This document shows positions 2,721 through 31,265 of a stretch of 64,000 nucleotides of DNA, one piece after another. A model generated the notes under the pieces. The model was not told where the DNA came from and did not search any database. It saw nothing but the letters and a program-made list of their open reading frames with translations. Source of the stretch: Podospora anserina (taxonomy: Eukaryota); NCBI GenBank assembly GCA_017654855.1, contig CM030338.1, forward strand, positions 310,001 through 374,000. Direction: 5' to 3'. The stretch's first letter is position 1, and every line of letters begins with the position of its first letter. A program made the position numbers and the translations under genes.

Positions 2721-4198
2721 ATGGGCCAGGGACCCAGCACCAGCGCCCTGCAGCAATGCATCCAGGGGGTTGCCAACAACCGAGCCAACTTCGCTGCTTT
2801 TGCCGGGAGCCCACTTTACCAGATTCAATGGGTCAAGCCGTATAATCTTGATGTGCCCGTCGAGCCTGCCGCCGTGGTGAGGCCAGAGACGGCACAGGAT
2901 ATTTCCGACATTATCAAGTGCGCCAATGCCAACGGCGTCAAGGTGCAGGCCAAGTCTGGGGGGCACTCCTATCAGAACTACGGCGCTGGCGGGAGTGATG
3001 GGGCCGTTGCCATCGACATGGTCAACTTTCAGAAATTTTCAATGGACACCAAGACATGGTATGCTACCATAGGGGCTGGAAATCGCCTGGGAGAGGTGGA
3101 CAAGAAGATGCACGCTCAAGGAGGACGGGCCATGGCCCATGGTGTCTGTCCTGGTGTTGGCCTTGGTGGTCATGCTACGATTGTAAGTGACTCTTCAAAT
3201 CATGTCTTGCTGGATGCCTGCTAACTTGACCATCAAAGGGAGGATTGGGCCCCATGTCGAGAATGTGGGGATCTGCCTTGGATCATATTGTCGAAGTTGA
3301 AGTCGTCACCGCCGACGGCAAAATCCAGAGAGCGAGCGCCACGCAGAACGAGGATCTTTTCTGGGCCCTCAGAGGCTCTGCGTCTGGGTTCGGAGTCATC
3401 ACCGAGTTCGTTGTGAGAACACATCCCGAGCCGGCCAACGTTGTTCAGTACGAATACACCATCAAGCTCGGGAAACAGGCCGATGTCGCTCCTTTGTACT
3501 CGAAATGGCAGGCTTTGATGGCGGACCCCAAGCTTGACCGTCGGTTCGGATCCATGTTCATCATGTTCCCTCTTGGCGCTATCATCACTGGCACATTCTA
3601 TGGAACTCAGGAGGAGTTCTTGACAACTGGCATCCCCAACGCTCTTCCGCAAGATGGCAACGGCCATCTGGTCATCAACGACTGGCTTGGGGGTTTGGCT
3701 CATGATGCCGAAAAGGAGGCACTGTATCTGTCTGGGCTTGCTATGCCATTCGTATCACGCTCTCTGGCCTTCAAGCGACAGGACCTCCTGGGACCGGAAA
3801 AGATCAAGGACATTTTCAACTGGGTCGACACCCAAAAGAAAGGCACGCTCCTGTGGTTCATCATCTTCGACGCCGCAGGGGGTGCTATTGAAGACGTACC
3901 GCAGAATGCCACGGCCTTCGCTCATCGTGACAAGGTCATGTACTACCAGTCTTATGGTATTGGACTGCCCGTGACAAAAACCACCAAGGATTTCATCACC
4001 GGATTTCACGACCAGGTTGTTCAGAAAGCCGGTCCAGGCACTTGGGGCACGTATCCAGGGTACGTCAACAACGCTTTGGTCAACCAGCAAAAGCAGTACT
4101 GGGACTCCAACCTGCCCGCATTGGAGCAGATCAAGGCTCGGTGGGACCCCAAGGACTTGTTCCACAACCCAGGGAGTGTGAGGCCTGCCAAGAACTAG
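2721..4198 (+). CDS. FAD-linked oxidoreductase, berberine-bridge/AA7 (glucooligosaccharide oxidase-like) family
   Basis: KSGGHSY and CPGVGLGGH FAD-attachment motifs, DLFWALRG, C-terminal BBE segment YPGYVN..KARWDPKDLF; intron starting at 3183 (GTAAGT..CTAAC..AAG). Confidence 0.9.
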
Positions 4199-12578: not shown

Positions 12579-14072
12579 GGCGCAAGACGATTCAGCACCA
12601 GGCTGAGGAGACGAGAAGAGAAAAAATATGACAGCGCCAATGCGTCAAGCAATGAAGCCGAAGAGAAAGGGCGTCAGGCGAAGTTGATTTCGCGCCGAAA
12701 GAAGGGAACAAGATGCTACTCGGTGATGGGAGGTCAGAAGTGAGGCACTGTTGGAGAAAAGACAGGTTTGGCCAAGGGAAGCTCGGACGGCTTGGATGGC
12801 TGTTTGGAAATGCAGGGGACTGCCAAGCGGGGGCGTTGTTGGGTTTCTCCTGCAGTGCCCTGGTCTTGTCTTGTTGCCTTGTTGGTTTTGAAAATGGATA
12901 CAGGTAGCAAAGTCAATGTAAAAATTAGCTGCTGCTTGTTGGATGCAACTCTGAATCTTGGGACATCTGGATGCCTGCTCGATTTTGTGTTAATTTTTTC
13001 TTGGGAAAAGCTGCAAAAGCGTGACGACATTTGGTAGCTCGACTTCCTTGACAGGGCTCGGTCCTTAGTGCGACGCGGCCCCCCCTCCATGGACGTCATA
13101 GGCGCGGGTGGTACACCCCAATCCCACTGCAGCCCGAGGAATAAACACAGTGCCCTATCTTTCACCAGTATTGATGTCAATCAGTCATATACAGAGTTTG
13201 TGTCAATGAAATATGGATGGACCTTGAACGAGAAGAGGTGAAACTTTTCCTGAATGTTGGGTCGGCTTGTCAAAATGTTTCAGATCGGCGCCGGGAACGG
13301 CGAGGCAATGGCACCTTACTACGGAGTTCTCTTCAGCCTTGGGCTTCAACCTACCTCGGATGAGATGGCAGTTACATACTGTGTATGGATTATGATCCGA
13401 TTACTTCCATTTCCTACTGCCTTGTCGGTCACAAAGCACAGAAAAGCGAACAGCAGATTTCATCACACGCTTTAGACTAGTGTAGATGAATGAATGATAC
13501 CCATAAAACAGCATATGATTGATTATATCAGCGCAGCCTGGTATTTTGTGAAGTCATTGGGCACGTGCAAACGGCCCACTTTGTAGCAATCACCGGATGT
13601 TGATTGGCCCTGACACGGCGTCTTTGTGATAAGCAAAGCCCCGGTCCTTTGGGCGACGACCCTCCTCCGCGCTGAGCCTAGGCCTGCATCTCCAGCGTGG
13701 ACGTGGAGTTGCACCTCCTGGTGGGATTTTGGAAATCTGTTGAAGATTTGCCATCGCATCCATCCATCGCCCATTTCCCATCTCAAATCACTATCTGACT
13801 GTCCCAACCAACAACCCATCACCCGATCAGCAGAAATCAACCCTTTGCTGTCGACAACAACGACAACGACAACGACCACTGCCACATCTTGCGCTCCCCT
13901 GTCAAACCGCCACCGACCTCATCTGCCTCTCGATCCAAGGCCACGGTCCCGCTGGAAACCTTCTCATAGTTCCCATGCGAGGTTAGAGTAGAGGCCTCGG
14001 AATTCCTGCTACGAATGGCGTGTCCTTAACGTCTCCCGCCACGCACAATCACTCGACAAAACTCCGGTGAAG

Positions 14073-17000
14073 ATGGCGGACCCCCAACTTCTGGGCCCCT
14101 TTCCGCCCCCCGACCCAGATCGATTTCCAAACACTAGGCTGCGAAGCCATCTTCTCAGGCCAGACTCGACGCCGCAAGAACCGCAACCATCACATTCTAC
14201 GAATGATCCAGACACATGTCGAATATGTCGCGGGGAGGGGACGCCTGAAGAACCGCTCTTCTACCCATGCCGGTGCAGTGGCAGTATCAAGCACGTCCAT
14301 CAGGATTGCTTGATGGAGTGGCTCTCCCATTCACAAAAGAAACATTGCGAGCTTTGCAAGACGCCCTTCCGCTTCACCAAGCTCTACGATCCAAATATGC
14401 CCAGATCGTTGCCATGGCACGTCTTTGCCAGCCACATGGCCAAATATTTCTTCGCCAACATGCTGCTGTGGATGAGAGCGTCGCTGGTTATGCTGGTTTG
14501 GTTTGGAGCCTTGCCGTACGTTATGAGGAATGTATGGAGCATGTTGTTCTGGTTCAGCGATGATGGTATGGCTGCTTTCCTCTTCCACAAAAGACGAGAT
14601 CAAGCCCATCAGCTGGCCTCGGCCGCTGGGACGACACCTAACCCGGCCATGAACCTGTTCAGAAACAACACCACGCTAGCTACTAACCTCATATTCCCTG
14701 GCACAGCATGCATCGCCAAAAGCACCTCTGGTGCCGCTCAGGCCTCCAACGAGCACTCGGCCACTTCTACCATTTTACGTCTATTGTTTGGAGCACCCGA
14801 TACATCTGGCGCTGTTTCCACCGAGGCGGTTGCTATCCCAACTAGGAACAACTCCCTTTTGAGCGGCGTCCAATTTCTTCGCAACTTGACGCGGCATCCT
14901 TGGCTAAACGACAAGGTCATAGAGGTCCTAGAGGGCCTGATTATAACAATTCTGGTTATTGCTTGCTTCATTCTCATCATCTTGGTCAGAGACTATGTCG
15001 TTCAACAACAGCCCGAGATCAATATGCGTGCTGCGTTTGCAGCTGCTGAAAATGCGCCGCATCCCGCACCACCACAGGAGCCCCTGGCACGACCAGAACC
15101 CCCACCTGTCGAGGAGGAACATCATGACAACCCTGCTCAGTGGGAGGATCTACAGGGTCAGTGGGATCCCGCCATTGTCGAACCACCTCCGCACTTGGCG
15201 CTGGAGGCCAGGCGCCAGATTGCGTTGGCTCGCTTGCAAGCTCATGAAAGACGGCTTCAAAGACAGTGGGCAGAACCCGAAGCTCGATATCAAGCAAGGT
15301 ATGCGGGTGACGACCATGCTCCTGCACACGAGGCTGCTGAGAATAATCCAAATAGCTTGGCTACTGGCTCACGAAATAGTTCGCCCTTTTTGCCATCGCC
15401 CTCCTTCCTTCCAAGAGCGGAACTGGACGCCATCGTCAATGGTGGTGAAGCTGCTGACGTGAAAAGCCGGCACCTCCATGACTTCCTTGCCATCTATCAG
15501 CGTGCCAAGGGAGATCCCCATCGCATTCTCGAAATTGCCAGAGAACAAGGGGCTGAGGAGCGACTGGATTACTGGCTGGCCCTTACGAGGTCGCTGCTGG
15601 ATCGTCAAAACCGTACTGTGGCCGGTGCCGATGACCACTCGGACGCCAGCAGCGCTGCTGAGAATACTCCAGCATCGAGCACGGATGCTCGCTTCAAGAA
15701 TATGGATTCTCCACCGTTTGGAGGCCTTCGTCCAGCCACCCAGGCTATGGAGTGGACGACCTTTTCGGCTGGCGAAGACAATTTTGGACCCCGACATGAT
15801 AAAAAAGGCAAGGGCGTACTAAGAGAGGATTCCGACGGTGAAAGCGCCCACACCGAAGACAGTGAAAGACCTTTAGCAAGCCCGCTTCGACCAAGGGCCA
15901 ACACAGATGGTCCCAAAATTAGCGATACAATCCACCCCTTGGCCAACAATAGCTGGTCGTTCCAGACCTTGACAGAACAAGAGCCTGATGGGATGTTGAG
16001 TGACCAACACGGGACTGAGTCGACATCTTCGGGGCACTCGACTTTCGGATCACCCAAACAACCGGCGTCTCGACAAGATGCTGCGTCTGCCTTCTTCAAG
16101 AGGCCCAGATTCACCGAGGCTGCATTCGAACTTGACCAGACCACCCAGTCTGTGCCGCATCTGAGCAGCAGGGCTGAGGAAGAACTGCCAGCTGATCATT
16201 TGACTTCAGGACAGGAATCAAGCGCCGATTTTTGGGACATGACCTCGGGTGCTGAAGCGGCCCAGTCAGAGACAACCCCTCCGCCAGCCTTACCAGAGAA
16301 TGGGGAGGATGCCGATGCGCAGGCCGAGCCCCAAACCCCGAATCCGCCAGCCCCGCGCCCCCAGCCCGTAGGCATTGTCGACAGACTTGCTGATTTTATG
16401 TGGCGGGATGTGGATGGAATAGACCCGGCCGAGCTTGCTGCAGCTGACGCTCTGCAATTCGACGTGGGGGAAGGTGATCTCGCCAACGATGAGGTAGAAG
16501 AGGACGACCCCGAAGTGCCACAGCGAGATAGAGAGGTGGTTGAAGCCGCTGTGGCAGCTGGGCTGGATCCAGACGCGATCGAAGATGCTGAGGACTTGGA
16601 AGGGATCCTGGAGCTCCTCGGTATGCGAGGTCCCGTCGCTGGCTTATTTCAGAATGCCATATTCTGCTCTTTTCTCGTCTCTATTACCGTCTTCCTCGGT
16701 ATCGTAGTCCCCTACAATATCGGGCGTATGACAGTTTGGATGGTCGCGAATCCTATTCGACCGGCGCGGATGCTCTTCGGCTTATGCATGCTCGTTCAGG
16801 ACATCGCCATTGTATTGTTCGGATTAGCAGTTTTGTTCGGCGCGAAGGCTCTTCTCGTGCTCACGAAAGTCGCCCCCAGTTTGCTTGGCTCTGTGGTCGA
16901 CCTTCTCACAACCACGTCGGCCATGTCCTATGGCACCATGATGAGTGCTTCCAACAGAGTGGGGAGCAGTTTCTTTGCCGAAATCGTCCACATTTCTGGC

Positions 17001-19469
17001 ACTGAGATACAAAACTTCTCTGCCATCAGTCATGAGGCATTGCTTCAACTGAAGGGCCACATTAGTCTGGGGTTCGCTGCACTTGTCACAGCGGTGGACT
17101 ACCTCTTCTCCGGTGATTACGCCGAAAAGAGCTCCGACATCGTGTCATTCATGGAAGGGCTCGCTACGATAACGATGGGATGCTTGAAGCAACTCCCCGG
17201 CATCCTCACCAACCCCAACTCTTGGGTACTTAACCTCAGCGTGCCAGATTCCACGTCAACGGCCTTTGATGCAGAACTTGCTCAGTGGAGCGGCACCGAC
17301 AGACTCTGGGCTATCGTGGCTGGTTATGTTGCCATCTCCATCATTGCTGGTCTCTACTTGCGACGAGGAAGCCCCTTTTTTACGGGTCCAACAGGTCAGG
17401 ATTGGGAAGCATCCATTATTGATGGCCTCAACCAAGCTAGTGGCGTCATGAAGGTGATCCTGATCATTGGTATCGAGATGCTCGTCTTCCCGCTCTATTG
17501 TGGGCTGCTGCTCGACCTCGCCTTGCTGCCCCTTTTCGCGGGCGCCACGATTAGGTCAAGGGTCCTCTTCACCATGAACTACCCAGTCACGTCCATCTTC
17601 GTTCACTGGTTTGTCGGAACAGGGTACATGTTTCACTTTGCCCTTTTCGTCTCCATGTGTAGAAAGATCATGCGCAAGGGGGTTCTCTACTTTATCCGCG
17701 ACCCCGACGACCCGGAGTTCCATCCGATCCGCGATGTTCTGGAGCGCAGTGTCGCGACTCAGCTGCGCAAAATCCTGTTTTCTGCCTTGGTTTATGGCGC
17801 ACTCGTCATGGTTTGCCTAGGCGGCGTCGTCTGGGGGCTTGCCCTTTCTGCTTCGAGCGTTCTACCGATCCACTACTCGTCCAATGAGCCTATGCTGGAG
17901 TTTCCCGTCGATCTGCTCTTTTACAACTTCCTCATGCCACTAGCAGTTCGTCACTTCAAGCCCAGTGATGGTCTACATGCCATGTACACGTGGTGGTTTC
18001 GGAAATGTGCCCGAGGCTTGAGGGTGACTTGGTTCTTATTTGGGGAGCGTCGCATCGATGAGGAAGGCAAACTTGTACTGAAGAGCGACTCACCCGATGC
18101 GGCCCTGCCGTGGTGGCGGACATTGTTCCTTGAGGTGAATAACGACCAGGTGCGGGCAAAGCAGTGGACCAACCCTTTCGAGCCCAGCCCGGAGAAACCG
18201 ACCGTCATGCGAACGGAAGACGCTCTCTTGTGGAACACAAACAAGAAGGCCCTCGTCGAGTCAGGCCAACTCATCCCTGACGGACGCTATGTTCGGGCGC
18301 CATGCTCTGATCAGGTCAAAATTCCCAAGGGCAAGAGGGTGTTTCTCGACGTATCCGAAGATAACAAGCGACAGGACGAGGCTGCACCAACTGACCTGTA
18401 CAACTCTGAAGAGTTTCAATTCGTCTATGTGCCGCCCCATTTTAGGCTCCGGGTCTTCCTCTTCATCACTTTCATCTGGGCCTTCGCCGCCATCACGGGT
18501 ATTGGTTTCACCATCGTACCGCTCGTCTTTGGCCGTTGGATGTTTAGATCTCTTCTTCCCAGTCACATTCATACCAACGACATCTATGCTTTCAGCATCG
18601 GCATCTACATTTTGGGCTCTGCTGCTTATGCCGCATTTCATGCGCTGTCCATCTACCGTGCCGCACACGATTGGGTCGACAGCTTTACAAGGACCGTCGT
18701 CAATGGGGAGGCTGTCCGGCCAATGGTTGATGCAGGCATCCGGGTTGCCAAGATTATTTACGCCCACGTCTTTTACCATATCGTCTTTCCCCTCATGCTT
18801 GCCTCATTGGTGGAGTTGTATCTTTTGACGCCGGTGAATGAGATCCTATATGGTGCCCTACCTAAGAAGCGAGCTGATGCTTCTGAGCTTGCGCCCATCA
18901 TGACGCCAGGTGCTGAACTCAATCCGAAGCATACTGTTCGTTTGGTCCAGGCCTGGACCATTGGCCTGCTCTATCTCAACCTCATCAACCGGATCATCAA
19001 CCGCTGGTTTTCGGGTACCCGCCTTGCTGCAGCCGTGATGGCTATCTTCCGGCGTGGCTGGCTGCATCCAGATGTCTCCATCCTGACTCGGGCTTTCATC
19101 GTTCCTGGACTCATCCTCTGGAGCAGTGCCGTCATCGCGCCGCTCCTCCTTGCCAGACTTGGCGTGGCCAACGGGCTACATGAGGCCATGCTTCACTCAT
19201 CGTATGGCACACCTCTTGTCGGCCATGCCGAGTTAAGCCATGCATACAAGGTCCTCATCTACCGTCTGAGTTACCCCGTCATGGCTGTGTTGGCTGTCTG
19301 TGCAGTTGTGCTCTGGAGTATGTTTGGTGTGTTCAAGAGGTGGAACATGCGTATAAGAGACGAGGCATATCTAATCGGGGAAAGGTTGCATAACTTTGGG
19401 GCGTCGGTGGGAAATAGCACCCCAAAGGGGAAGGCCACAGCTTGGAGAGGCGCTCCGGGAAGGATATAG
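14073..19469 (+). CDS. DOA10: ERAD RING-CH E3 ubiquitin ligase Doa10/Ssm4 (MARCH6 family)
   Basis: CRICRGEGTPEEPLFYPCRCSGSIKHVHQDCLMEWLSHSQKKHCELC RING-CH; TD-domain IGIEMLVFPLYCG; many TM segments; C-terminal RDEAYLIGERLHN. Confidence 0.95.
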   Translation: MADPQLLGPFPPPDPDRFPNTRLRSHLLRPDSTPQEPQPSHSTNDPDTCRICRGEGTPEEPLFYPCRCSGSIKHVHQDCLMEWLSHSQKKHCELCKTPFRFTKLYDPNMPRSLPWHVFASHMAKYFFANMLLWMRASLVMLVWFGALPYVMRNVWSMLFWFSDDGMAAFLFHKRRDQAHQLASAAGTTPNPAMNLFRNNTTLATNLIFPGTACIAKSTSGAAQASNEHSATSTILRLLFGAPDTSGAVSTEAVAIPTRNNSLLSGVQFLRNLTRHPWLNDKVIEVLEGLIITILVIACFILIILVRDYVVQQQPEINMRAAFAAAENAPHPAPPQEPLARPEPPPVEEEHHDNPAQWEDLQGQWDPAIVEPPPHLALEARRQIALARLQAHERRLQRQWAEPEARYQARYAGDDHAPAHEAAENNPNSLATGSRNSSPFLPSPSFLPRAELDAIVNGGEAADVKSRHLHDFLAIYQRAKGDPHRILEIAREQGAEERLDYWLALTRSLLDRQNRTVAGADDHSDASSAAENTPASSTDARFKNMDSPPFGGLRPATQAMEWTTFSAGEDNFGPRHDKKGKGVLREDSDGESAHTEDSERPLASPLRPRANTDGPKISDTIHPLANNSWSFQTLTEQEPDGMLSDQHGTESTSSGHSTFGSPKQPASRQDAASAFFKRPRFTEAAFELDQTTQSVPHLSSRAEEELPADHLTSGQESSADFWDMTSGAEAAQSETTPPPALPENGEDADAQAEPQTPNPPAPRPQPVGIVDRLADFMWRDVDGIDPAELAAADALQFDVGEGDLANDEVEEDDPEVPQRDREVVEAAVAAGLDPDAIEDAEDLEGILELLGMRGPVAGLFQNAIFCSFLVSITVFLGIVVPYNIGRMTVWMVANPIRPARMLFGLCMLVQDIAIVLFGLAVLFGAKALLVLTKVAPSLLGSVVDLLTTTSAMSYGTMMSASNRVGSSFFAEIVHISGTEIQNFSAISHEALLQLKGHISLGFAALVTAVDYLFSGDYAEKSSDIVSFMEGLATITMGCLKQLPGILTNPNSWVLNLSVPDSTSTAFDAELAQWSGTDRLWAIVAGYVAISIIAGLYLRRGSPFFTGPTGQDWEASIIDGLNQASGVMKVILIIGIEMLVFPLYCGLLLDLALLPLFAGATIRSRVLFTMNYPVTSIFVHWFVGTGYMFHFALFVSMCRKIMRKGVLYFIRDPDDPEFHPIRDVLERSVATQLRKILFSALVYGALVMVCLGGVVWGLALSASSVLPIHYSSNEPMLEFPVDLLFYNFLMPLAVRHFKPSDGLHAMYTWWFRKCARGLRVTWFLFGERRIDEEGKLVLKSDSPDAALPWWRTLFLEVNNDQVRAKQWTNPFEPSPEKPTVMRTEDALLWNTNKKALVESGQLIPDGRYVRAPCSDQVKIPKGKRVFLDVSEDNKRQDEAAPTDLYNSEEFQFVYVPPHFRLRVFLFITFIWAFAAITGIGFTIVPLVFGRWMFRSLLPSHIHTNDIYAFSIGIYILGSAAYAAFHALSIYRAAHDWVDSFTRTVVNGEAVRPMVDAGIRVAKIIYAHVFYHIVFPLMLASLVELYLLTPVNEILYGALPKKRADASELAPIMTPGAELNPKHTVRLVQAWTIGLLYLNLINRIINRWFSGTRLAAAVMAIFRRGWLHPDVSILTRAFIVPGLILWSSAVIAPLLLARLGVANGLHEAMLHSSYGTPLVGHAELSHAYKVLIYRLSYPVMAVLAVCAVVLWSMFGVFKRWNMRIRDEAYLIGERLHNFGASVGNSTPKGKATAWRGAPGRI

Positions 19470-19875: not shown

Positions 19876-21555
19876 TCAGTGGTCTTCCACGTCTTCATCT
19901 CGGCCTGGATATACGATGTCTCTCACCACCACTGCCCTGACACAGTGGAACAGAACAAATCCATAGACCAACACCAAAACAATCGAGATGGCCGTCGAAA
20001 ACCACAGGACGAACTCGTTCTGAAACACCTTCCCCAGAGAGATGGTGGCCAGGATAAAGCCCGTGTTTGGAAACACCGACGCCCACCACCCCAGGTGGAA
20101 GTACCTCGGTGGGCTCTGCACCACGGCCAGCACGGCAATGGCAAACCACCAGAAGCTCAGCGCCCAGAGGAACCCGGCCCCGACGATGGCCATCATGAGC
20201 ATGATGCTCGCGTCGAGCAGCCCGTCCATGTTGGCGTCGAAGCTCCCCGGGAGGGACTGAGCAAGCCCGATAAATGCCAGCGCGGTGAAACTCGGCGGGC
20301 CGACGCACATGAACAACCCCGGCCTGTGCTCCCTGTCTGGAAGGCCCGACTGCATCAGCCGGCCGACCATGTGGGCGTACATCATTGCCGCGACGCTGAT
20401 GCCCAACCCCTGACAGCTGAGGCCGCTGACGATGATGGGGAGGGCCATGGCGGGCGGTTGGGTGGAGGCGATGACGGAGGCGATGGTGCCCGAGAGCATG
20501 ACGGGGAAGATGGGGAGGATCCAAGTCGGCATCATGGTTTGAAGGCTGAAGGAGTGCCGGCGGCCAAAGACGAAGGAGTATTGTGCTACTGCTAGGCAGG
20601 TTGACAGGGCGACGTAGATCCAAAAGGCGATTTGGATGGCCCAGCGGAGCCCCTGGCGTTCACCGTCCCATGATTGGATGTGGGAGGGGATGCAGTATTT
20701 TTGTGTCGAGGTGATCAAGGTTGCGATGGAGAGCAGGAAAGTGGGGACGAAGAAGCCTTCGCGGGGGTGGGTGATGGAGGCGACGAAACTGCCGGTGTTG
20801 AGGAGGAAGCGAGCCAAAAGGAGGGAGGTGATGAGGGTGAAGAGGATGATGTTGAGGATGTAGACTGCTAGGCCGAGGACCGGGGTAAGGGAGGGGAACT
20901 GGTGGGGTTGGGCGTGGATGAGGAGGGAGAGGCCACCAGTGGACATAGAGAGGGTGTACCATGCCCAGGTAAAGTGTTTGAGGCGGGAACGTAGAGAGAG
21001 AGGTGGTCGGGGATGGGTGTGGTCGTGAGGATGGCCCGGAGAGGGGGTAGGAGATGGTGAGGGGCGGCTGTCGAGCGCGTCATTTTTGGCGGCTGCGATA
21101 GCGGCGGTAGCTTCGATGTCCTCTGGGGATGGCTTGAGCTCCTGATCAGTAGGGAGGCGACTCAGTCGGCGTCGTTCGGGAACGACATATGGCAAACTCG
21201 TGCCCGAGATGGAGCCCCGTAGAGTGGGCGCCCGGGAATCGAGCTGGAGATCGTGGACCAGATCGTCTTTTTCTGGGTTCCGTAACTGATCAAGGGATGG
21301 GCTTGCATCGTCAGAGCTGATCGATAGCCGACTGAGACGACGTTGCTCTCCTCTCTGTTCGCGGCCTTCGTAGAGGTATGGATTTTGTTGAGAGACGCTG
21401 GAGGGTCGACGGCGCATGGACCGCCGGGGAATTGGGGGGGCGGGACGATGGGATGCAGGTGCTCTAGCGCCTGCAGCTTGTGGCTGGAACTTTTCGTATT
21501 CTGCGTCCTGCCGGTTGGTTTCAATATCAGAACTGTCCAGCAGTGGTGCTGACAT
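19876..21555 (-). CDS. C4-dicarboxylate/malic acid transporter (Mae1, TDT/SLAC1 family)
   Basis: HFTWAWYTLSMSTGGL, WILPIFPVMLSGT, RPGLFMCVGPPSFT and WWASVFPNTG motifs; about 10 TM segments. Confidence 0.92.
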   Translation of the reverse strand: MSAPLLDSSDIETNRQDAEYEKFQPQAAGARAPASHRPAPPIPRRSMRRRPSSVSQQNPYLYEGREQRGEQRRLSRLSISSDDASPSLDQLRNPEKDDLVHDLQLDSRAPTLRGSISGTSLPYVVPERRRLSRLPTDQELKPSPEDIEATAAIAAAKNDALDSRPSPSPTPSPGHPHDHTHPRPPLSLRSRLKHFTWAWYTLSMSTGGLSLLIHAQPHQFPSLTPVLGLAVYILNIILFTLITSLLLARFLLNTGSFVASITHPREGFFVPTFLLSIATLITSTQKYCIPSHIQSWDGERQGLRWAIQIAFWIYVALSTCLAVAQYSFVFGRRHSFSLQTMMPTWILPIFPVMLSGTIASVIASTQPPAMALPIIVSGLSCQGLGISVAAMMYAHMVGRLMQSGLPDREHRPGLFMCVGPPSFTALAFIGLAQSLPGSFDANMDGLLDASIMLMMAIVGAGFLWALSFWWFAIAVLAVVQSPPRYFHLGWWASVFPNTGFILATISLGKVFQNEFVLWFSTAISIVLVLVYGFVLFHCVRAVVVRDIVYPGRDEDVEDH

Positions 21556-24222
21556 GATATTATGCGATTAATCAAGAGAAGACCTGCTTCGGCCAAGAAC
21601 GTGGTGCAGGGGCGAAATGCAAGCCTGAGAGAATGGATGATGTTGCTGACCGAGACCGAGGAACTTGAGGGGATAATAATAAGTGAAAACTGAGCGACGG
21701 AAAGACAACAAAACAAAAAACGACTGCTCCAGAGCCTGTCGAAGAAAAATGAGCGTGATGATTAGGACGGGGCTTAACTGTCTGCAAGCGCTCGAGCTTT
21801 TGTACATGTTGATCGTATTCGCATCGAGACTTTTCACCGAATGACCACCCAGGCGACATTGGAGTGGAAGTGGCAAGATATTTCAAACATTTGATGTTTG
21901 GGTCACGGTAGGTAAGCAAGTTTCGACAGCTCAAATGTCGAGTCAGTCACGACAACTGCTCTGGTCAGAGCTTGCTCGAGCTTTTGGCTCTCATTTCGTC
22001 ATCATGTCCAGCCAACACGAGATACGCGCCATGGTCTCCTACATGTAAGAAATAAAATCTAATTTTGCCTTGACGCTTTTATTGAGAATAAACAGGAAGT
22101 TTGCAGGCGGGTGTTGCCTTCATCGTCAACCTCCTCTTGGCGTCGGATCATCCGAACAAGAGTGGTGCTTGGACATGCCTGACTCAGAGGTCTGAGGACC
22201 TTCAGCCTTTTGGTAACAGCTTCAAGTCTTGAGAAACTTCTTTCTCAGCTGTGTGGAAATTTGCACACATTATGTGGCATGAGATTCTACTTGGATGCAG
22301 AACTTGAAAGTCATCAATATCAGGTTCTCATGGCTGGTGACTGCCCTCGTGTAAGGACCATTGACACTGTAACTCACAACGACCGCCATTTTGAATAAAA
22401 CGAACACATCGAACGTTACCTTACCCACATATTAGAAGTTTCTGCTTACTAGTCTGGCAATATTTGGCTGCCATAACGCAGATATTGAAAGATAAGGGTA
22501 AGGTAACTAGACCAAATGTCACGTCATTCAATGTTCACGTCGTATCGATGCTGGGGGTCCAGTGAAATAAATGCACGTAAGATTTTAACCTCATTTTCGA
22601 AATGCTTAAATCTGTGATGACCGCGGCTAGTGCGCGTTGGCCCCGTAAATCAATCTCGCTGCCTGACGAGACATGCGCTCGATAACCCGTGGACGTGGTA
22701 CCCTCAGCAGAGAAGAAGACGCCACCATACCCACAAGAACAATAGACATTTCTTGGGCATCATACGCAGTGCATATTGACCCGACTCCGTCCCTGGGATG
22801 ATGGCCAATGATACCCCTTTTGCCAATATTTAGCACCTTAGTTAGTGGCCATGGTCTGGCATGATGGTGCGATCAGTGTCATGAAATCGCCGGCGGACGA
22901 AGTGGACCAACCCAAACCGAGACATGCTGAAGCCTCGATAATCAAGATGCCTATGATTGTTTGAGAAATTCGGGTGCCTAAAGCCAAATATGTCTGTGGA
23001 GCGCGACTCGAGGCAGGGTCAAGTAACGTCGTATGCATGAAGAGACTGAGGGACAGCAGCCTCGACGCACACCGTGTCACCAACCTGGCACAGAGCATGC
23101 AGAAACACAGTCCCACAGAAGCAGAGGCTTCAATGATATGTCTAGAGGGAGAGTGTTGCTTTCTTCTTCTGCACGGGCACCGGACGGATCTTATATCCAG
23201 TGCCGCATCAGGCAACATCGAAACTGAAACGGGCAAAGTTCGAACTGAGAAAAGCACAGTATCCGCCCTGATTCCAACGTCAAAAGTGGAAGGTTTACTG
23301 CTTCAGCTCTGGTAAGGTGATAGTCAATCTAACCTCTCCGCTCTGTCTCCATAGTAAGCACTGTGATGACCGGCGGAAAGGGGGCGGTTGGAGTTCTGGG
23401 AACCCTAACCCTATGTAGGCCTCTCGCTCGGACTGAAGTGCCACAACAGGTAGGAGTGCGTGGCAGCAGGGACCTCACGTGAAGGCCCCCACTTTACAAC
23501 GGGAAGTACCTGCCAACACCCCCAAAGTTGGGGCTTCGAGATTGGCTGCAGGGATCCCCGCCAGAGAAGCCCAGGCAGCAGCTTTTTGCACCCTCCATTG
23601 CCTGCTTCGGGATGCGATGGGCCAATGCGGCATCGCAGCGATCCCGCCCATCACAGGCACCGAAATAACAACCACCAAATCCCGAAAGTGTGATGCTGCC
23701 ACGATAGAGGATGCTGCACTGGTGAAGGCCGTCTCTCTTCCCATTTTCGCCTCCCTTCTCAACCTCAACTTTCAAGGGGGGCAAACGGCTGCAGCCTGCC
23801 TTCTTTTTCTTTTCTTTCTTCCTTTCTTGCTTCTCCTCTCTAAGCTCACTTCGTTTCTCTCTTTACTATCTCCCGCAGCGTCTTCAACCTTCCCACAGGT
23901 ACCCCTCATAAACCCGTTGGTGGATTGCCCGATTGACCTCCAGGTCTTCACCAACAACAAACTTGGCGTGCATTGTGTATTTCCCGCAGGCAAGTTCCAA
24001 TCAGTCTCACCAACAGCCAACGCCAGCCCACCATCGACCATAAACTGTCCCCAGAACCCCGCACTACCTTGCCGTGACGAGTCCCTCTCTTCTGTCGATA
24101 ATAGAGGCCATGTATTGAGACCGAATGCCAAGTAGTAGCTTGGATTGGAGTCGACTAGGGTGTGAAAGACACCAGTGAACCAGCAACACCGAACCGAGCA
24201 TCATCAACACAGGTCTCCCGCC

Positions 24223-27200
24223 ATGGACCCTCTCAACCCCATGGGTGATGCCCAGCCGGCCTTCCAGCGCCGGCTGAGCAGGCTTTACAACGACACCAAA
24301 AGGAGATCCGAGTTTGTTCAGACCTCTGTCCAACACCCCGAAGCCGATCCCGAGGTCAGGTCGTTGCATCGAAGGCTCAGGATTCAGAAGGACCGTTTCG
24401 TCACCTGGGGTTTGGAATGGGCTGACCCTAGTCAGTCGGCCGAGGTGTTGATAGACTCGTCGTTGAACAAGGCCGGAATCAGCGAACTGGTTAGCAACAT
24501 CATGTCCAACATCAAGGAAATTCTTGCCGAAGCCGAGCCACTCTGGATGAGTTCAAGACGACTGGCGGGAGAGATTGTTGAGCCAGCACAGCCACCCCGG
24601 AGGGGAGAAAAGATTCAGATGGTTGTCTGGGACAAGAGCAAGTTTGAAGGTTTGATCCGCGATCTTACCGATGCTATCGACACCCTCTACGAAGTATCCC
24701 GAACAAGATCATCATATGCAAGCTCTGCCGCCGTCGGGGGGCGGCCGGCCAAGTCCTCGGCGGTAGCAGAAGACCTGCGTCCCTTTGCGTCATCACGGCT
24801 ACAAACCCCAGAGCAGATCGATCCCAAGATCTTGACCTCGTTGCGGTCGGTGCAGGCAGCGCCTATGACCGAGCACGACGAGAAGGAAAAAACCCACGAA
24901 ATTGTCTTTATGGACAAGCAATCTTACGCCAAACTCACACGAACTACTGCTGGTGCACGCCATACCCAATCGCCACTTCTTCTTGAATATGCCCCTTTCA
25001 GCTCCCTATACTCTATCACGGGTGTCTCACCACCGATGCACCGCTTCGAGAAGCTGTTTTCTGGCCTTCAGCTTGAACCTCAAAGGCCGGTCCAGCCGGG
25101 ATCGTGGATTGGGTTACCGCGTTTGTTGGGCTACTTTGAAGACATGGAAAACTCAAGATTCGGATTGATCTATCAGTTTCCCCAGAAGTTCAATGCCGTC
25201 ACGTTTGAAACTTTGACCCAAAACCCCCTGAACAACCTCTGCACACTCGCCGACCTCCTGGCCCGCCCAGACTTTGAGCCTAGGCTTGAGGCCAAGTTCC
25301 GGCTCGCTGCCAATCTGGCAAACAGCGTCTTTGACCTGCATGACCGGGGCATCACTCATGGGAGCATCGGCGATGAAAACATCTCTTTTTGCAATGCCGT
25401 GGGCACTGACCCCGAAGTCAGCGGAATCACTCAAGGAGAGGTTGATATTCGCAGACCTCTTATTTCTTCCTTTGATCTTTTTTCAGAGACAGAGCCAGAG
25501 TATCAGGAAGGTCCCAGAGAGTTCTCTTTGTACAAACACCCCCTTGACCCACGAAACAGTGTTCAATCCCCCCTCGCCAACAATGCCGACTCCAAGACCT
25601 TCGACCTCTACTCTCTCGCCATGATTCTTCTCTCGATTGGTCTCTGGACTAAACTTGAGAATCTTGTCCCTAACATGGCCCCGCCAGTGCTGCCCGAGTC
25701 CGTTCTCACTCAATTGGGTATCCGCTGTGGCACGCTTTACATGAAGGCAGTGCAGACATTGTGGTCTGCGGTGGACCAAGAGTTGAGTGGCACGCAAACG
25801 ACTGACAAAATTGTAGAACGGGTCGAATTCAAGGCTGGTCGATATCTGGAGGCATGCTGTATCCTGGATGGTGTCAGCAATCTTGAGGAGAGACTGGGTG
25901 ATGACCTAGGGGATGTGCGCCCGGAGCACGCACGGCTGAGCACACCATCGATCGCTGGACCTTCAAAGGACTCGCAATCAGAAAAGCCGTCCGCCTCTGT
26001 GTTATCAGCCGGCCAAGTCCAAACAGAAGCGAGAGGTAAGTCTGCTGTCGTGGGTCTTCAAATCCCTCCATCGGTGCTAATCCGTTTATCCCAGCCGCCG
26101 ACGCCAATGAAACTTCAACCAAACCGAAGCTACGACTCTTCAAGCACGTGCCCCTACCACCCGAAGAGGTCGAGCGGTGGAACACCAACATCATGCCACA
26201 GGTCAACCAGGCTCTTCGGCACTTTTATCGAAAAAATCCCGAGTCAGTCGAAATTTCGCTGGAGTCTGTTGGAGAGAGTCCTCAAAAAACAAAACCCACA
26301 GTTTTAGTGGTGTGCCAATCCACAAGCTTGGTCAAAACTATCCTGAAGAAGAGGCTTGGCAACATTTTGGCTGCGGCCGGCCTCGGGTTGAGGGTATGCA
26401 CTGGCCGAGTCATCAAATCTCGCAGAGACGCTGTTGGGAGAAGCATGGCTGGTCCAGAAGAGGAGGTGGTTGCGGCCAATCCAGAACACCAACAGCAACC
26501 CTTGAATGGGGCAAGCATCGGGGCATGGAACCAAAGTCACCATCTGCCACCTGTCAGCCTCGGAGGGATGCTCGCAGTCGATGGCAGATTGTACGGCATG
26601 ACGGTACACCATATGTTGGACGAACCGGGTCCCGATTCGGGAGGGAAGTCAGGTGCTCCAAGAAGCATGGCAGGGCCTCCCGGAATGACAGATCTCCATG
26701 CTTGGTACGCACAGCAGTACACGAATCCCAGCGACTCGGACCAAGATACCAGCAGCAGTTCCGAGTATGATGCCTACGACCTCTCTGATGCAGATTCTGA
26801 TGCTTTTTCAGAGTCGGCCATTACTAGCGACTATTCGGAGGAAGACGACGACGACGACGGCGAGTATCAGGAGAGTGAGCCGGGAGATATACCCGGAATT
26901 GAACCCGGTTGTGGGGACGGGTACATCGTCACACAACCTGCCCTGGACGATGTGGATGCTGGTTTCTATCCTTGCCTGGAAACCCAGGATGAAGACCATC
27001 TCGACACGTACAGAGTTGGGGAGATGTATGCATCAAGTGGTATCCGACGTCGTAGGGAGGGGGGAATGAACCACGAGATCGATTGGGCCCTTTTTGAATT
27101 CTTCGACGAGCGACTGCCCTCTGGGAATTTGATTCCCTCCCTCGACCCGCCACTGACAAAAGCACAATCACAAACCACTTCGTCCAGCATTTGTCCTACA

Positions 27201-27992
27201 ACTGTTGCACCTATGTCAAGCTTGCCGGGCCTAGGGGTTCAATGCATGGCACGCACTTCAGGCCTACAGACTGGTGTTATCCTCCCAGCTATGGTGTCCG
27301 TCAAGATTTATGGTCGGGTTTCGCCAAGCGAGACATATCAAGTGTCGGGAACCCGACCGTCTCCAGACCAGCCTCGTCACCCAAAACAGTCGTCGCTTCC
27401 GATGGGCATGCCGGGAGACTCGGGGGCATGGGTAGTTGATGGTGCGAATGGTCGAGTATGCGGGCATATTCTTGCCTGGAGTGAGCGCAAGAAGGTTGCT
27501 TACATCTGTCCAATGGATGTGCTGATTCTTGATATTGCCGAGACGTTGGAAGCCAATGAGATTCGTCTTCCGGGAGGTGAAGTTGTGTACTCGCGGGAGC
27601 CGCTGAGTGCTCAATATCCCATGAGGTCTTTGACGCAAAGGAGTGCAAGAAGTGACATGTCGGGCTGGCAACGTTCTGAGGGCGATGTTGGCGACGACGA
27701 GGGCGAAGAGCCATCTACCCCAATGGCTAGATTTGCCGCCAGGAGACACAGCAGCCGACGGTCTCAGAGGAGCGTGGTGGCCGGTAAGAGGGCATCTTAC
27801 CTCTCGGCCAAAAGACAGAGCCAACAAGCAACGATGGAAAGCACTGTTGGGGAAGAGGAGCTGGAGCACGATGAGGGGGTCGAGGTGGATATCAGTGTTG
27901 GGTTAGCTAATCAGCTCAAAGCAATGAACCTGCCTCCGGGAGACTCAAGCCTATCTTCAGCAGAGATGATGAGGAAATGGGGATATGCCTGA
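24223..27992 (+). CDS. HeLo-like domain + kinase-like (pseudokinase) + trypsin-like serine protease fusion, about 1236 aa
   Basis: N-terminal LRIQKDRFVTWGLEW (HeLo-like); kinase-like LPRLLGYF..FGLIYQ..LH..HGSI..DLYSLAMILLSIGLW; intron 26036-26094 joins the two ORFs in frame; protease motifs TVHHM, EIDWAL, PGDSGAWV. Confidence 0.8.
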
Positions 27993-28437
27993 CTCAAGGC
28001 GAGCTCGGGTTATATACATCCGTATTGGGATGCGACAGTCTGGGCTGACTGAAACAAGAATATGATGGGTATGAATGGGGGGAAGTATAAGGTCATGATG
28101 ACCCGATACCAATCTGCATCATGATATCCCCTGTTTTTGGCTAGCGAAATTTACTACTCTCAGTGCTTCTCGCACAAAAATAAAGCTGAATAATTGCTTG
28201 AATGTTGTCTGTTGACCCTGTCGAAATCAGCTTTTCTCTATGCACGGTAATTATGATGGATGAGATCCCATTGGTGCTGAGAAAGATTCTTGAGCGAATG
28301 AGGGGGTTGGCCATGAGCGACAAGATGCATGAGTTTATGCAGCCCAATTTATGCACTATTCATAACTGACTCCCTACTTAGGACTATACGCAAAGTTGAA
28401 ACAGAAACGCTGACCTGGACTCATCCGTTTGTCTTAT

Positions 28438-31265
28438 CTAGGGAGTTGCCCATCCTGCCTCCGCCAGGCGCATTTTGCGGAGCTGTTGAGCATTCATTTG
28501 CTAGTGGTGGTAAACGTCTGAGATCGAGGATCTCAAGGGAGTGGGGAAGGCAAAGGCAGTATCATACAATCTCCACGGTGCCATGAACCAGGTATCTTGT
28601 GACTAGGACAGTCTTCTTCTGACCACGGCGGGCAACACGACTGAGGGCTTGACTCTCGACGCTTGGGTTCCACTGGGGCTCGAGAATGTAGACGTGGTTA
28701 GCAGCTGTGAGGTTGAGCCTGGAAACACGGGAAGTCGGGTGGTTAGCAAGGTTGGGATACCTAGGGGTTGGCGGAGATGGCACGTACCCGAATGCACCGA
28801 CACCGGTAGTCGTGAGCAGAACTGGAACGGAGGTGCCCTCGTCAGACACAAAACGGCTCATGTTGTGCTGTCTTTCTGCCAGTTTTTGCCTGCCGTCAAT
28901 TCGTTGATGAAGGATCTTCATCCGAGTGAGATGGAGTGCGACCAGGTCCAGGGTTTTTGTCCAGCAGGAAAATACAATGCTGGGTGAGTTGATGTAAGCT
29001 TGGTTCTCAAGGACTTCGGCCAGTCTAGCAGAGCCGACGTACCTCTTCGTGTCTCTTGGGGTTTGCTGGAGGTGGCGGATCAGGACTTCGATTTTCGATG
29101 AGACTCCTGATAGATCGAAATGGTCCACCTTGTCATTGTTGTCGTCACCGCTATTTGGCGTCAGGACGTCTGATTTTGGACTTATATGCCCACCACAATA
29201 CAAGCACGAGGTCTTGTTCGCTGATCTCTGGTCATCGGAGGGGATGCACTCTGGACAAATTACATGCCCACAGCCATGACGGAGTTTTGGAGGTGCTGCA
29301 TCAAAGGCAGGGACCGGTATCCCGCACATGGAACATTCAATATCAGCGCTTGAACCTAGAGCATAGAGAAACTCTTCCCGCTCTAGCAGCTTGTCTCTGC
29401 GGCCACGTCGTTGGAAAGGCTTTTGGAACGTCCCTTGGTTGCAGACCAAGCGAAGCTGGAGCTGGACTTGGAAGATACCAAATGGTCCCGTTGGTCTGCA
29501 CGTAAGCCGGTTTTGTGATTGATCCAGTTGCTCATGTCAGCAGCTGTCTTGTCATAGCGGTTTCTTTCCTCTTGGGAGAGCGTGATGTAGTGGTAGCGTT
29601 CCTCAATCGGAGGCAGCTCGAGCATCTGTTTTGGCCTCCTCAGGCACAGTGTCTCGAACAATAGAGTGAATTGCTAGGTTACAGTATGTGCATCTGGCGA
29701 AGACGCATCCATGATCTTCTTCTTGAACATGGCCCGGTTTTGTAGCTGGTCGATTGGTAGGAAAGCAAGGGGCGACCCGAGCTCTTCCAGCCGGTTCTGA
29801 ATGGGAGTAGCTGTGAGGCACCATCCGAAGTTTGCGCGGATTTCACACGCTGCCTTGAAAAGTGTTGTCTGGGGTCGCTTGATCAAATGTGCTAACAGGC
29901 AAAACTAAAGTCAGTACAAAGTATGTGCTCCTATAGAATTGGGAGGTCACTGACCCTCATCGACGACAACCCTGAACATTCAATCTGAAACAATGCACTT
30001 TATTCTTTGCATTGTTGCTAACCGCCACCGTATTGTATGTAGTGAAGACGAGATTGCTGTTGAGGTAACTGTGAATGTTGATATTGCGGTCTTTGCAATA
30101 GTATTTCGCTATGGTAAGTGAGAAGTCAAGATGCCTCGGCAATTAGAGAGATGTTAGAGAACAGGTTCAGTCTGTGGTCTCGATTAAGGCCCGGTAGTTA
30201 GAAACTTACTTTTTGATTTCTTCCAACCACAAGTACATGATGACTGCGACTGGTCAGCAAGATTTGCGAGAGCGTTTGGTCAAAGTGTTCGCGTTGGGAA
30301 CGCACACCCTGCAAGGCTTTGCTGGTCTTGTTAGCAAAATCCGCCCCGGGCCCGGCAAAGACTTTAGGTTCTTCAAAACCGGGGAAGTGAATCAACTGCC
30401 TGTTCAGATACTCGATGTTTTCGGTGCCATATTCGGGGTCTTGAAGGTACAGCTTGGCAGTGCTGCCGAGATAAAGCCCTACGGCATCGGCATCGGCAGC
30501 AGATCCGTATATGTTGATGTCCACTCGTAGCTTTGCCTGGCCAGGAGTGTGTGACTGGTAAAAGAGGCTCTGTATTTTCCCTATTTGGGCAAACGCCTTC
30601 ACTTCGAAAAACTTGAACTTGTTGAACAGCGAAGTGAGAGCTTGTGATACAGCCTCATTCACCTGGGCGAATATGTGATTATCTGAAAATATGACCATCA
30701 AGTAGTCGTCGTGTTTGATGACAGCAAATGACTGAACATGCTCGTTATTCAGAAGCCTGTCTCTGGACTCGGCCAGGTTACCAACCAGCTTCACTTCGGC
30801 ATGGCTGATCTACTGGACATTGGCGTTAGTTAGAGACAATGGAGATGAGACGACCCGTGGCAGATAACCGTGAATGCAGACAAGAACTCACAGTCCCGTA
30901 GCAACAGAAGCCGCCATCTCCACTTTCTTGCTCCTCGATTTCCAGCAACTCAGCTATACCAGGTGCTATGGGATCATCTTTGATGCCACATAAAGTGGCC
31001 CAAGCCTTCATTTGACTCCATGTGTCCCCTAGTACTGCTGGATCTATCATGGGCTCTTCGTTGGCATTCTCAAAGAGTTCGCTAGTGATAGGGGGCGCTC
31101 CAAACGAGCTACTGTTGTGAATCATTTCCCACTGGGAAACTGCCGAGGTGCTCGGAGTTATGAGGCTGCACAGGTCAAAATGTCAGCAATTTTCCCTCTC
31201 GAGTAACAGGCAGTATGGCGGATCTCGTTATATTTCATGAGGACCGATTCGGTAAGTCGCTTCAT
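28438..31265 (-). pseudogene. SNF2-family (Rad5/16-like) helicase with RING finger, degraded
   Basis: Motif II VVVDE-AH split by an intron, WCLTATPIQNRLEEL, RING-like CSMC..CGHVICPEC..CLYC, SSKIEVL, LNLTAANHVYILEPQWNPSVESQALSRVARRGQ; frameshifts; Walker A segment not found. Confidence 0.8.

Follow-up and report, generated by a model that had tools for sequence, protein, structure and literature searches.

The window analysed here is a stretch of 64,000 nucleotides of Podospora anserina DNA (assembly GCA_017654855.1, contig CM030338.1, positions 310,001 to 374,000), in which a gene on the + strand at 24223..27992 encodes a protein with a HeLo domain and a degenerate kinase fold in its front half and a predicted chymotrypsin-fold serine protease in its back half. 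Proteins of this kind are already known, as the gene resembles SltB, a protease that signals salt and alkaline stress in the Slt pathway, which is specific to Pezizomycotina and confers tolerance of cations and alkaline pH, and sequence comparison indicates that it is very probably the Podospora ortholog of SltB (Pa_7_4390 in P. anserina) and works alike. Because SltB has been characterised, the main claim of novelty that had been made for the gene in a first-pass annotation, prepared from the sequence alone, falls.

Gene structure and relation to SltB

Two open frames on the + strand, 24166..26307 and 26040..27992, are joined via one intron in the following gene model, in which the start codon is ATG 24223, the earliest in frame.

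24223..26035, + strand: exon 1, comprising 604 codons and the first base of codon 605, covered by transcript contigs
26036..26094, + strand: single intron of 59 nt, running from a GTAAGT donor via a branch-like GCTAAT to a CAG acceptor
26095..27992, + strand: exon 2, with the stop codon at 27990..27992

When the exons were joined by coordinates, the coding sequence was 3711 nt long and was translated into 1236 amino acids (aa) with one terminal stop, the junction codon being GCC, to which exon 1 contributes its last base and exon 2 its first two. Exactly 59 nt, with GT..AG ends, were skipped in the contigs of three of three RNA-guessed runs (X1, X5 and X13, from three studies), and a single X13 contig of 4427 nt spanned 23900..28147 with only this joint, indicating one mRNA across both halves. 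The intron was retained in the DNA-like run X15 (one run, 78-kb contig). The RNA status of runs X1-X14 is a guess from the data, with none recorded as RNA, and the contigs carry no expression level or strand. Words sampled across the junction were present at a level of 0.91 in 14 RNA-guessed runs and 1.00 in six others. The annotated protein of Podospora pseudoanserina (P0003) was found to be of equal length with 99% identity, and its 90% cluster includes P. anserina PODANS_7_4390 (Pa_7_4390) and four sister species. Thus, the single spliced open reading frame of about 1236 aa with an intron at 26036-26094, as initially read from the sequence, was confirmed by coordinate joining and by the intron-skipping contigs.

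An arrangement of two separate genes, or an annotation artefact, in which the intron is kept and a 694-aa HeLo-pseudokinase product is made next to a separate protease frame, has a practically negligible probability. Splice-unaware gene calls (Logan cluster members) do split this locus into pieces of 694 and 561 aa, and in metagenome gene calls many homologs are likewise cut into halves, but the exact removal of the 59 nt in the contigs argues against it, as do over 100 homologs annotated at full length (about 1200 aa) and a conserved motif, K-x-R-L-[YF]...W (aa 616-633), which lies ahead of the first Met of the second open frame and is readable only after splicing. The transcript-like contigs stop at 28147 (X13) or 28202 (X1 and X5), 155-210 nt past the stop codon, and the X13 contig reaches more than 560 nt upstream of the ATG, the RNA ends being not fixable from the contigs.

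SltB of Aspergillus nidulans (AN6132) is described as a protein of 1272 aa, consisting of an N-terminal pseudokinase region without VAIK, HRD and DFG and a C-terminal serine-endoprotease region (PMC4557415). The Podospora protein is of the same length class (1236 versus 1272 aa) and likewise has a pseudokinase half and a chymotrypsin-like serine protease half with a linker between them, and HEIDWAL and GDSGAW are conserved with equal spacings. We compared its two halves (P0001, aa 1-604, and P0002, aa 606-1236) with a 1272-aa Aspergillus protein (P0400) by BLASTP. The C-terminal half was 36% identical (E 4e-81; residues 11-494 of P0002 versus 702-1194) and the N-terminal half 29% identical (E 3e-55; residues 14-534 versus 12-595), both halves being co-linear. 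Of 25 SltB residues named in the SltB papers, 21 occur in P0400 under the numbers given there, among them K257, Y478, N544, Y568, K690, M692, K693 and E743 and, furthermore, T972, H1008, H1033, D1036, F1126, G1140, S1142 and G1156. Through this alignment, SltB Y568, W722, H1008, H1033, D1036, S1142 and G1156 are placed at Podospora Y506, W633, H906, H931, D934, S1047 and G1061, respectively; aa 616 lies opposite P0400 residue 702, so that SltB Met-692 is placed in the linker just before aa 616. The two differ in that identity is only 29-36% and in that the single intron lies in the linker in Podospora versus near the 3' end in A. nidulans, where it occupies nt 3413-3480, counted from the ATG, and undergoes alternative splicing (PMC4557415). 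The intron position is, hence, not conserved between the two genes.

The search for homologs returned 420 representatives at E<=0.001, mostly of about 1200 aa, that match in the C-terminal half, and the organisms named for homologs were all Pezizomycotina (Sordariomycetes, Eurotiomycetes, Dothideomycetes, Lecanoromycetes and Geoglossum). This distribution and these lengths agree with the published description of SltB as restricted to Pezizomycotina, always alongside the zinc-finger factor SltA in the genomes covered there, and with the protease part not reported on its own (PMC4557415).

Several points weigh against the assignment. The comparison was made with P0400, which is named for another Aspergillus species and serves as a stand-in for AN6132, and four of the 25 published numbers misfit it, three Asp residues being off by one and His-939 being Asp. 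Peptidase_S64 (PF08192), the family to which Mellado 2015 pointed, gave no match at E<=1 in the Pfam search. In addition, Pa_7_4390 is up 2.58-fold in incompatibility (PMC3689799, Table 5), which is not predicted by a Slt role; in the same study, 2231 genes rose at least 2-fold. The published numbering of the SltB triad is itself inconsistent (His-939 versus His-925, and Asp-1036 alternating with Asp-1037 in the SltB papers), and P0400 fits H925, as given in a legend, and D1036.

The front half: HeLo domain and pseudokinase

The features of the front half were assigned as follows.

24271..24732, + strand: HeLo domain, aa 17-170, a predicted five-helix bundle (Pfam PF14479, 31.1 bits; helices of the AlphaFold model)
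24805..25902, + strand: pseudokinase domain, aa 195-560 (VIA Z 18.8; CLK1 profile match; DUF7580 in the family)
25357..25365, + strand: H-G-S replacing HRD, aa 379-381, with the catalytic Asp lost (alignment to the CLK1 catalytic loop)
25474..25482, + strand: D-L-F at the DFG position, aa 418-420, with the Asp retained (profile alignment; D in 30 of 35)

By its match to the Pfam family, the segment comprising about the first 170 aa of SltB is a HeLo domain, which gives the protein an MLKL-like layout and is absent from both SltB papers. In the Podospora protein, the HeLo family PF14479 was matched with an E value of 2.5e-7 and 31.1 bits, above the cut-off of 23.2, which bears out the HeLo-like N-terminus noticed in the first-pass annotation. 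The domain was also present in 29 of 35 family members at E<=0.01 by individual Pfam scans, and the precomputed HeLo family was assigned to 101 of the 120 homologs listed. The AlphaFold model of the front half (mean predicted local distance difference test score [pLDDT] 76.4) contains helices at 17-32, 43-66, 73-84, 87-114 and 138-170 and, behind them, an alpha/beta domain of kinase type. Within Sordariomycetes, the first 60 aa hardly vary, and column conservation marks the first helix throughout the family as polar and basic (RRLSRLYxDTKxS) rather than hydrophobic. The Atlas links to HeLo clusters (feature scores 0.89 and 0.87) are a lead only, and fold searches with the whole front half returned mostly kinases and are, therefore, uninformative on the HeLo fold itself.

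Two Aspergillus orthologs carry the database name "HET-s/LopB domain protein", so the HeLo match is familiar to annotation pipelines. LopB of Leptosphaeria was considered as an ortholog and dropped, as a signal peptide is described for it and the similarity is confined to the HeLo domain. No HeLo-kinase paralogs were obtained in the homolog search with the N-terminal half at near lengths, which returned mainly split calls of the same ortholog.

The kinase fold was supported by VIA-align, in which the model of residues 195..550 superposed on BRAF with a Z of 18.8 and a root-mean-square deviation (rmsd) of 3.5 A over 255 residues, with RIPK2, LIMK and the pseudokinase domains of HER3, JAK and TYK2 scoring close to BRAF. 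The family profile matched CLK1 (E 3.5e-6), with H-G-N/S opposite the HRD-type motif and F-D-L-F opposite V-D-F-G. By Pfam scans of the 35 family members, DUF7580 was detected in 20 and Pkinase in five, and the DUF7580 match in the Podospora protein was below its cut-off. In the HRD column of the 35 sequences, the His is kept in 33 and the Asp position is occupied by N in 21, D in seven, A in three and S in one; in the alignment columns, a Gly-rich loop is not evident and a Glu seems to take the expected position of the beta-3 Lys. Because the catalytic Asp of HRD is lost, the domain is predicted to be a pseudokinase here. H-R-D is still present in P0153, P0168, P0171 and P0190, which belong to three lichen-forming fungi and Geoglossum, and these minority members suggest that the catalytic Asp may have been lost within the family. 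As for the initial reading, a kinase fold with HGS in place of HRD was upheld, whereas the DFG motif, which had been taken to be absent, is degenerated to D-L-F with its Asp kept in 30 of the 35 sequences.

In MLKL and the plant MLKLs, too, a pseudokinase comes after a HeLo or four-helix bundle. In a Foldseek search with the N-terminal half, AtMLKL3 (6ka4) ranked second (E 7e-6), with 603 columns aligned across both domains and an rmsd of 27.6 A, which means that only the domain order is shared with confidence and that the arrangement is either different or unreliable. The best matches of the kinase domain, unlike MLKL, are RAF, RIPK2, LIMK and JAK pseudokinase domains, and the VIA top 50 for the N-terminal half contained no MLKL entry, other TKL-type kinases being listed. 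MLKL also lacks a fused protease, and for SltB no death function is known.

The protease half and its candidate catalytic histidine

The linker and the back half contain the following features.

25909..26126, + strand: disordered linker, aa ~563-615, spanning the intron and containing the putative self-cleavage site (pLDDT <50; correspondence with SltB Met-692)
26157..26417, + strand: small alpha/beta domain, aa 626-712, superposing on the NAL1 ATP-binding domain (VIA)
26493..27578, + strand: predicted chymotrypsin-fold serine protease domain, aa 738-1099 (VIA fold matches)
26607..26612, + strand: His776-His777 (TVHHM), the proposed catalytic His (invariant; role putative)
26619..26882, + strand: disordered insert, acidic and rich in Ser/Thr, that separates His from Asp, aa 780-867 (pLDDT <50)
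27081..27083, + strand: Asp934 (HEIDWAL), equivalent to SltB Asp-1036 (invariant; alignment to P0400)
27420..27422, + strand: Ser1047 (GDSGAW), equivalent to SltB Ser-1142 (invariant; alignment to P0400)
27594..27989, + strand: C-terminal tail, disordered and poorly conserved (pLDDT <50; unaligned columns)

In P0002 numbering, the model of the back half (pLDDT 74, predicted template modelling score 0.72) is confident at 11-110 and 130-500, with disorder in the stretch ~181-260 and in the tail from 509. The protease part alone superposed on Streptomyces griseus protease B with a Z of 15.9 and an rmsd of 2.4 A over 180 of 185 residues and on alpha-lytic protease with a Z of 15.7, and HtrA/DegS-type proteases scored about Z 11.5 (VIA-align). 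Residues H171, H172, D329 and S442 of P0002, which are 776, 777, 934 and 1047 of the full-length protein, were invariant in all 35 family members (identity down to 28%) and in 17 of 17 sequences of a second set, and G440, D441, G443, A444 and W445 were likewise invariant in the 35. These results bore out a protease with His (TVHHM), Asp (EIDWAL) and Ser (GDSGAW) motifs in a chymotrypsin fold, as read initially, and the enzyme is apparently active. The long acidic insert that had been noticed between His and Asp also proved to be a family feature, being present in all 35 members with a length of 59-115 residues, of which 18-46 are D or E and 1-11 are K or R. At the level of sequence, no Pfam family, including any protease family, was matched by the C-terminal half at E<=1, and PDB sequence searches with each half separately gave nothing at E<=1. 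The only match of the C-terminal profile to PDB sequences was an alphavirus capsid protease (E 0.95, around GDSG), with no NAL1 at E<=10. A predicted complex of the pseudokinase (195-560) and the protease module (10-500) scored 0.00, with the family alignments unused, and is hence uninformative.

The best structural match of the back half was rice NAL1, with a VIA-align Z of 20.7 and an rmsd of 4.3 A over 284 residues at 15% identity, and the superposition of model residues 21..492 on chain residues 90..444 covers the small domain before the protease as well as the protease. This Z is about 5 units above those of the proteases matching the protease domain alone, and in Foldseek structures of rice NAL1 took all the top places (E 3.8e-8), with bacterial alpha-lytic-type proteases next. 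In NAL1, residues 89-172 form an ATP-binding domain that builds the trimer and residues 184-458 the protease, the triad is H234, D291 and S385 with H233 adjacent, and ATP binding and a trimer/hexamer cage are needed for activity (PMC12012508). The small domain at aa 626-712, directly before the protease, thus looks NAL1-like. A trimer-building domain of this type suggests that SltB may need oligomerisation, which would fit the reported inactivity of its isolated fragment 692-1272 (PMC4985261). NAL1 and SltB are also alike in having transcription regulators as substrates, whereas NAL1 has neither the HeLo-pseudokinase half nor the long acidic insert. A link to NAL1 was not found at the sequence level by Pfam (E<=1) or by comparison of the family profile with PDB sequences (E<=10). 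Clusters in which Nal1_C is carried by 19-33% of the members, and Peptidase_S64 by 10%, were placed close by in Atlas (0.92-0.96), which is a lead only.

For the His of the SltB triad, His-925 (PMC4557415) and, later, His-1008 or His-1033 (PMC4985261, with a model reliable only for 1001-1180) have been proposed. From the predicted structure, the catalytic His is likely to be found not among these residues but in the invariant TVHHM doublet, which is 873/874 in P0400 numbering and 776/777 in the Podospora protein. The doublet fits better because, in the model, it directly succeeds strand three of barrel 1, because it belongs to the segment superposed on NAL1 and alpha-lytic protease, because the catalytic His of NAL1 is also part of a His-His doublet (H233/H234) and because the NAL1 and Podospora spacings agree. 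Counted from the start of the aligned range, NAL1 H234 is at +144 residues and Podospora H172 (P0002) at +151, and the His-to-Asp distance is 57 residues in NAL1 versus 157 in the Podospora protein, about 87 of which are insert. We infer that His777 in particular may be the catalytic partner of Ser1047 and Asp934. A catalytic His at TVHHM would explain why function is lost only partially in the H1033A mutant of SltB (PMC4985261).

A chymotrypsin-fold protease with a very large N-terminal prodomain that is self-cleaved is also found in Ssy5 of Saccharomyces cerevisiae (Peptidase S64, of the SPS amino-acid sensor), in which, similarly, the pieces stay functionally linked and a latent transcription factor is then clipped. 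The Ssy5 prodomain is not known to be of the HeLo-pseudokinase type. The comparison with Ssy5 was made by Mellado 2015 and 2016 (PMC4557415, PMC4985261), and the reported similarity is marginal (25% identity over 68 aa, e-value 0.09; PMC4557415).

Possible roles in stress signalling, at membranes and in cell death

In A. nidulans, SltB self-cleaves close to Met-692, parting the pseudokinase and protease halves, and is required for the processing of SltA from 78 to 32 kDa; S1142A behaves as a null, abolishing both self-cleavage and SltA processing (PMC4985261). SltB is nearly all in the cleaved form under every condition tested, without death, and an N-terminal GFP (green fluorescent protein) tag kills its function with cleavage persisting (PMC4985261), so that a free N-terminus of the HeLo domain seems to matter. 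The sltB nulls are viable, with hypersensitivity to cations and to alkaline pH; they have the same phenotype as the sltA nulls, the two defects not being additive, and sltB mRNA falls below 10% in the sltA deletion (PMC4557415).

By analogy, the Podospora gene would encode a 1236-aa precursor, composed of an MLKL-like front half (a HeLo bundle and a dead kinase fold), a disordered linker and a NAL1-like back half. The protease, acting via Ser1047, Asp934 and putatively His777, would cut its own linker at about aa 596-616 and, with the front half still needed, would next cut the zinc-finger factor SltA to an active short form, which would switch on cation- and alkaline-tolerance genes as well as sltB. 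The present data establish how the gene is built, which domains and invariant residues its product has and that this product is co-linear with an SltB-type protein of Aspergillus. Self-cleavage, its need for the catalytic Ser, the processing of SltA and the mutant phenotypes come from A. nidulans only; that the pathway works likewise in Podospora, precisely where the linker is cut and which His is catalytic are inferred. Release of the N-terminal module or cleavage of a partner by the protease, as suggested initially, agrees with the self-cleavage and SltA processing of A. nidulans SltB.

It may also be considered that SltB has a dual function and, besides processing SltA, exerts a HeLo-borne activity on the plasma membrane or on endomembranes, in the form of either sensing or mild damage, which would link the pathway to the genetics of ESCRT (endosomal sorting complex required for transport) and Vps, although we regard this as unlikely. 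Conservation of the HeLo domain in 29 of the 35 members and the loss of function by the N-terminal GFP tag speak for such an activity, as do sltB alleles, such as the N544 deletion and E743K, that suppress vps nulls without a cation phenotype (PMC4557415, PMC4985261). Moreover, loss of sltA or sltB rescues near-lethal ESCRT nulls for a reason that was stated in 2011 to be unknown (PMC3244986), and the low level of sltB mRNA in the sltA deletion implies that sltA suppressors could act through the loss of SltB. On the other hand, C-terminally tagged SltB was reported to be cytosolic without membrane association, with the tag mostly reporting the protease fragment; a simple linear pathway suffices for the identical, non-additive sltA and sltB nulls; partial sltA alleles suppress too (PMC3244986); and both of the separation-of-function sltB alleles lie outside the HeLo domain.

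The view of SltB as an MLKL-like protein fused to a NAL1-type cage protease, with the HeLo domain acting on or sensing membranes, is a rather improbable one. In animals, ESCRT-III counteracts the membrane damage caused by MLKL. If the view holds, it would explain how cation and alkaline stress or the endomembrane state reaches the Slt pathway and why ESCRT nulls are rescued by the loss of sltB or sltA, in parallel to the ESCRT-III repair of MLKL damage. HeLo is a cell-death executing module in HET-S and, as a relative, in MLKL. Its presence at the start of the "enigmatic" 600-aa prodomain of SltB offers a concrete hypothesis for the role of the front half. The words "HeLo", "HET-s" and "MLKL" are absent from both SltB papers (PMC4557415, PMC4985261), and links between SltB and the HeLo domain, between NAL1 and SltB and between NAL1 and Ssy5 were not found in the literature among the matches listed. 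The value of the present analysis lies in three links new to the SltB papers, namely the HeLo front, the NAL1-like protease and the His of TVHHM, all of which are testable by standard genetics in A. nidulans or P. anserina.

The first-pass annotation had further proposed a self-contained death switch, in which the pseudokinase restrains the HeLo domain and cleavage by the protease releases it to permeabilise membranes and kill the cell, a role that we consider very improbable. The HeLo domain above the Pfam cut-off, the HeLo-pseudokinase order as in MLKL with AtMLKL3 as the second Foldseek match over 603 columns, the predicted activity of the protease and the rise of Pa_7_4390 in incompatibility are in its favour. 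The proposal was, however, unsupported because cleavage of the A. nidulans ortholog is constitutive and non-lethal, because its null and S1142A mutants are viable and stress-sensitive and because the gene is a single, strongly conserved ortholog across Pezizomycotina with housekeeping neighbours rather than a variable, NLR-linked immune locus. The first helix of the HeLo domain, being polar and basic, also argues against it, as the N-terminal helix of HET-S is hydrophobic. Although the protein shares membership of the Pfam HeLo family with HET-S and fungal HeLo/HELL effectors, it further differs from HET-S in having no prion-forming or amyloid motif and no adjacent NLR and from HET-S-type effectors in being a strongly conserved single gene, not a variable one. 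Pa_7_4390 (1236 aa) was included among the HeLo proteins of P. anserina by Bidard et al. 2013, with no associated domain noted in the entry (PMC3689799). The word "trypsin" was absent from two cell-death reviews, and in the passages covered of them a HeLo-pseudokinase-protease architecture was unmentioned. The SltB-type function in stress signalling is the reading retained for the gene.

No NLR adjoins the gene, the neighbours being of the E3 ligase, anion channel and helicase types. The following features lie around it.

13992..19466, + strand: open frame of 1825 aa with RINGv, DUF7889 and MARCHF6_C, resembling a Doa10/MARCH6-type ubiquitin ligase of the endoplasmic reticulum
19879..21567, - strand: open frame of 563 aa with a full-length match to SLAC1/voltage-dependent anion channels (E 2.7e-93)
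23073..24222, no strand assigned: upstream region with six AGGCA sites, at 23210, 23573, 23599, 23655, 23797 and 23988 (site count)
28565..29536, - strand: open frame matching Helicase_C and containing a stretch rich in Cys; it converges on the sltB-like gene and is probably one exon of a larger SNF2/RING-type gene

AGGCA is the consensus of SltA/Ace1, and five sites are reported within 1.15 kb upstream of A. nidulans sltB (PMC4557415). The six sites in the 1150 bp upstream of the Podospora gene compare with a mean of 2.6 in the window, and six are reached in 6.5% of sliding windows, so that the count gives a weak hint of a similar arrangement.

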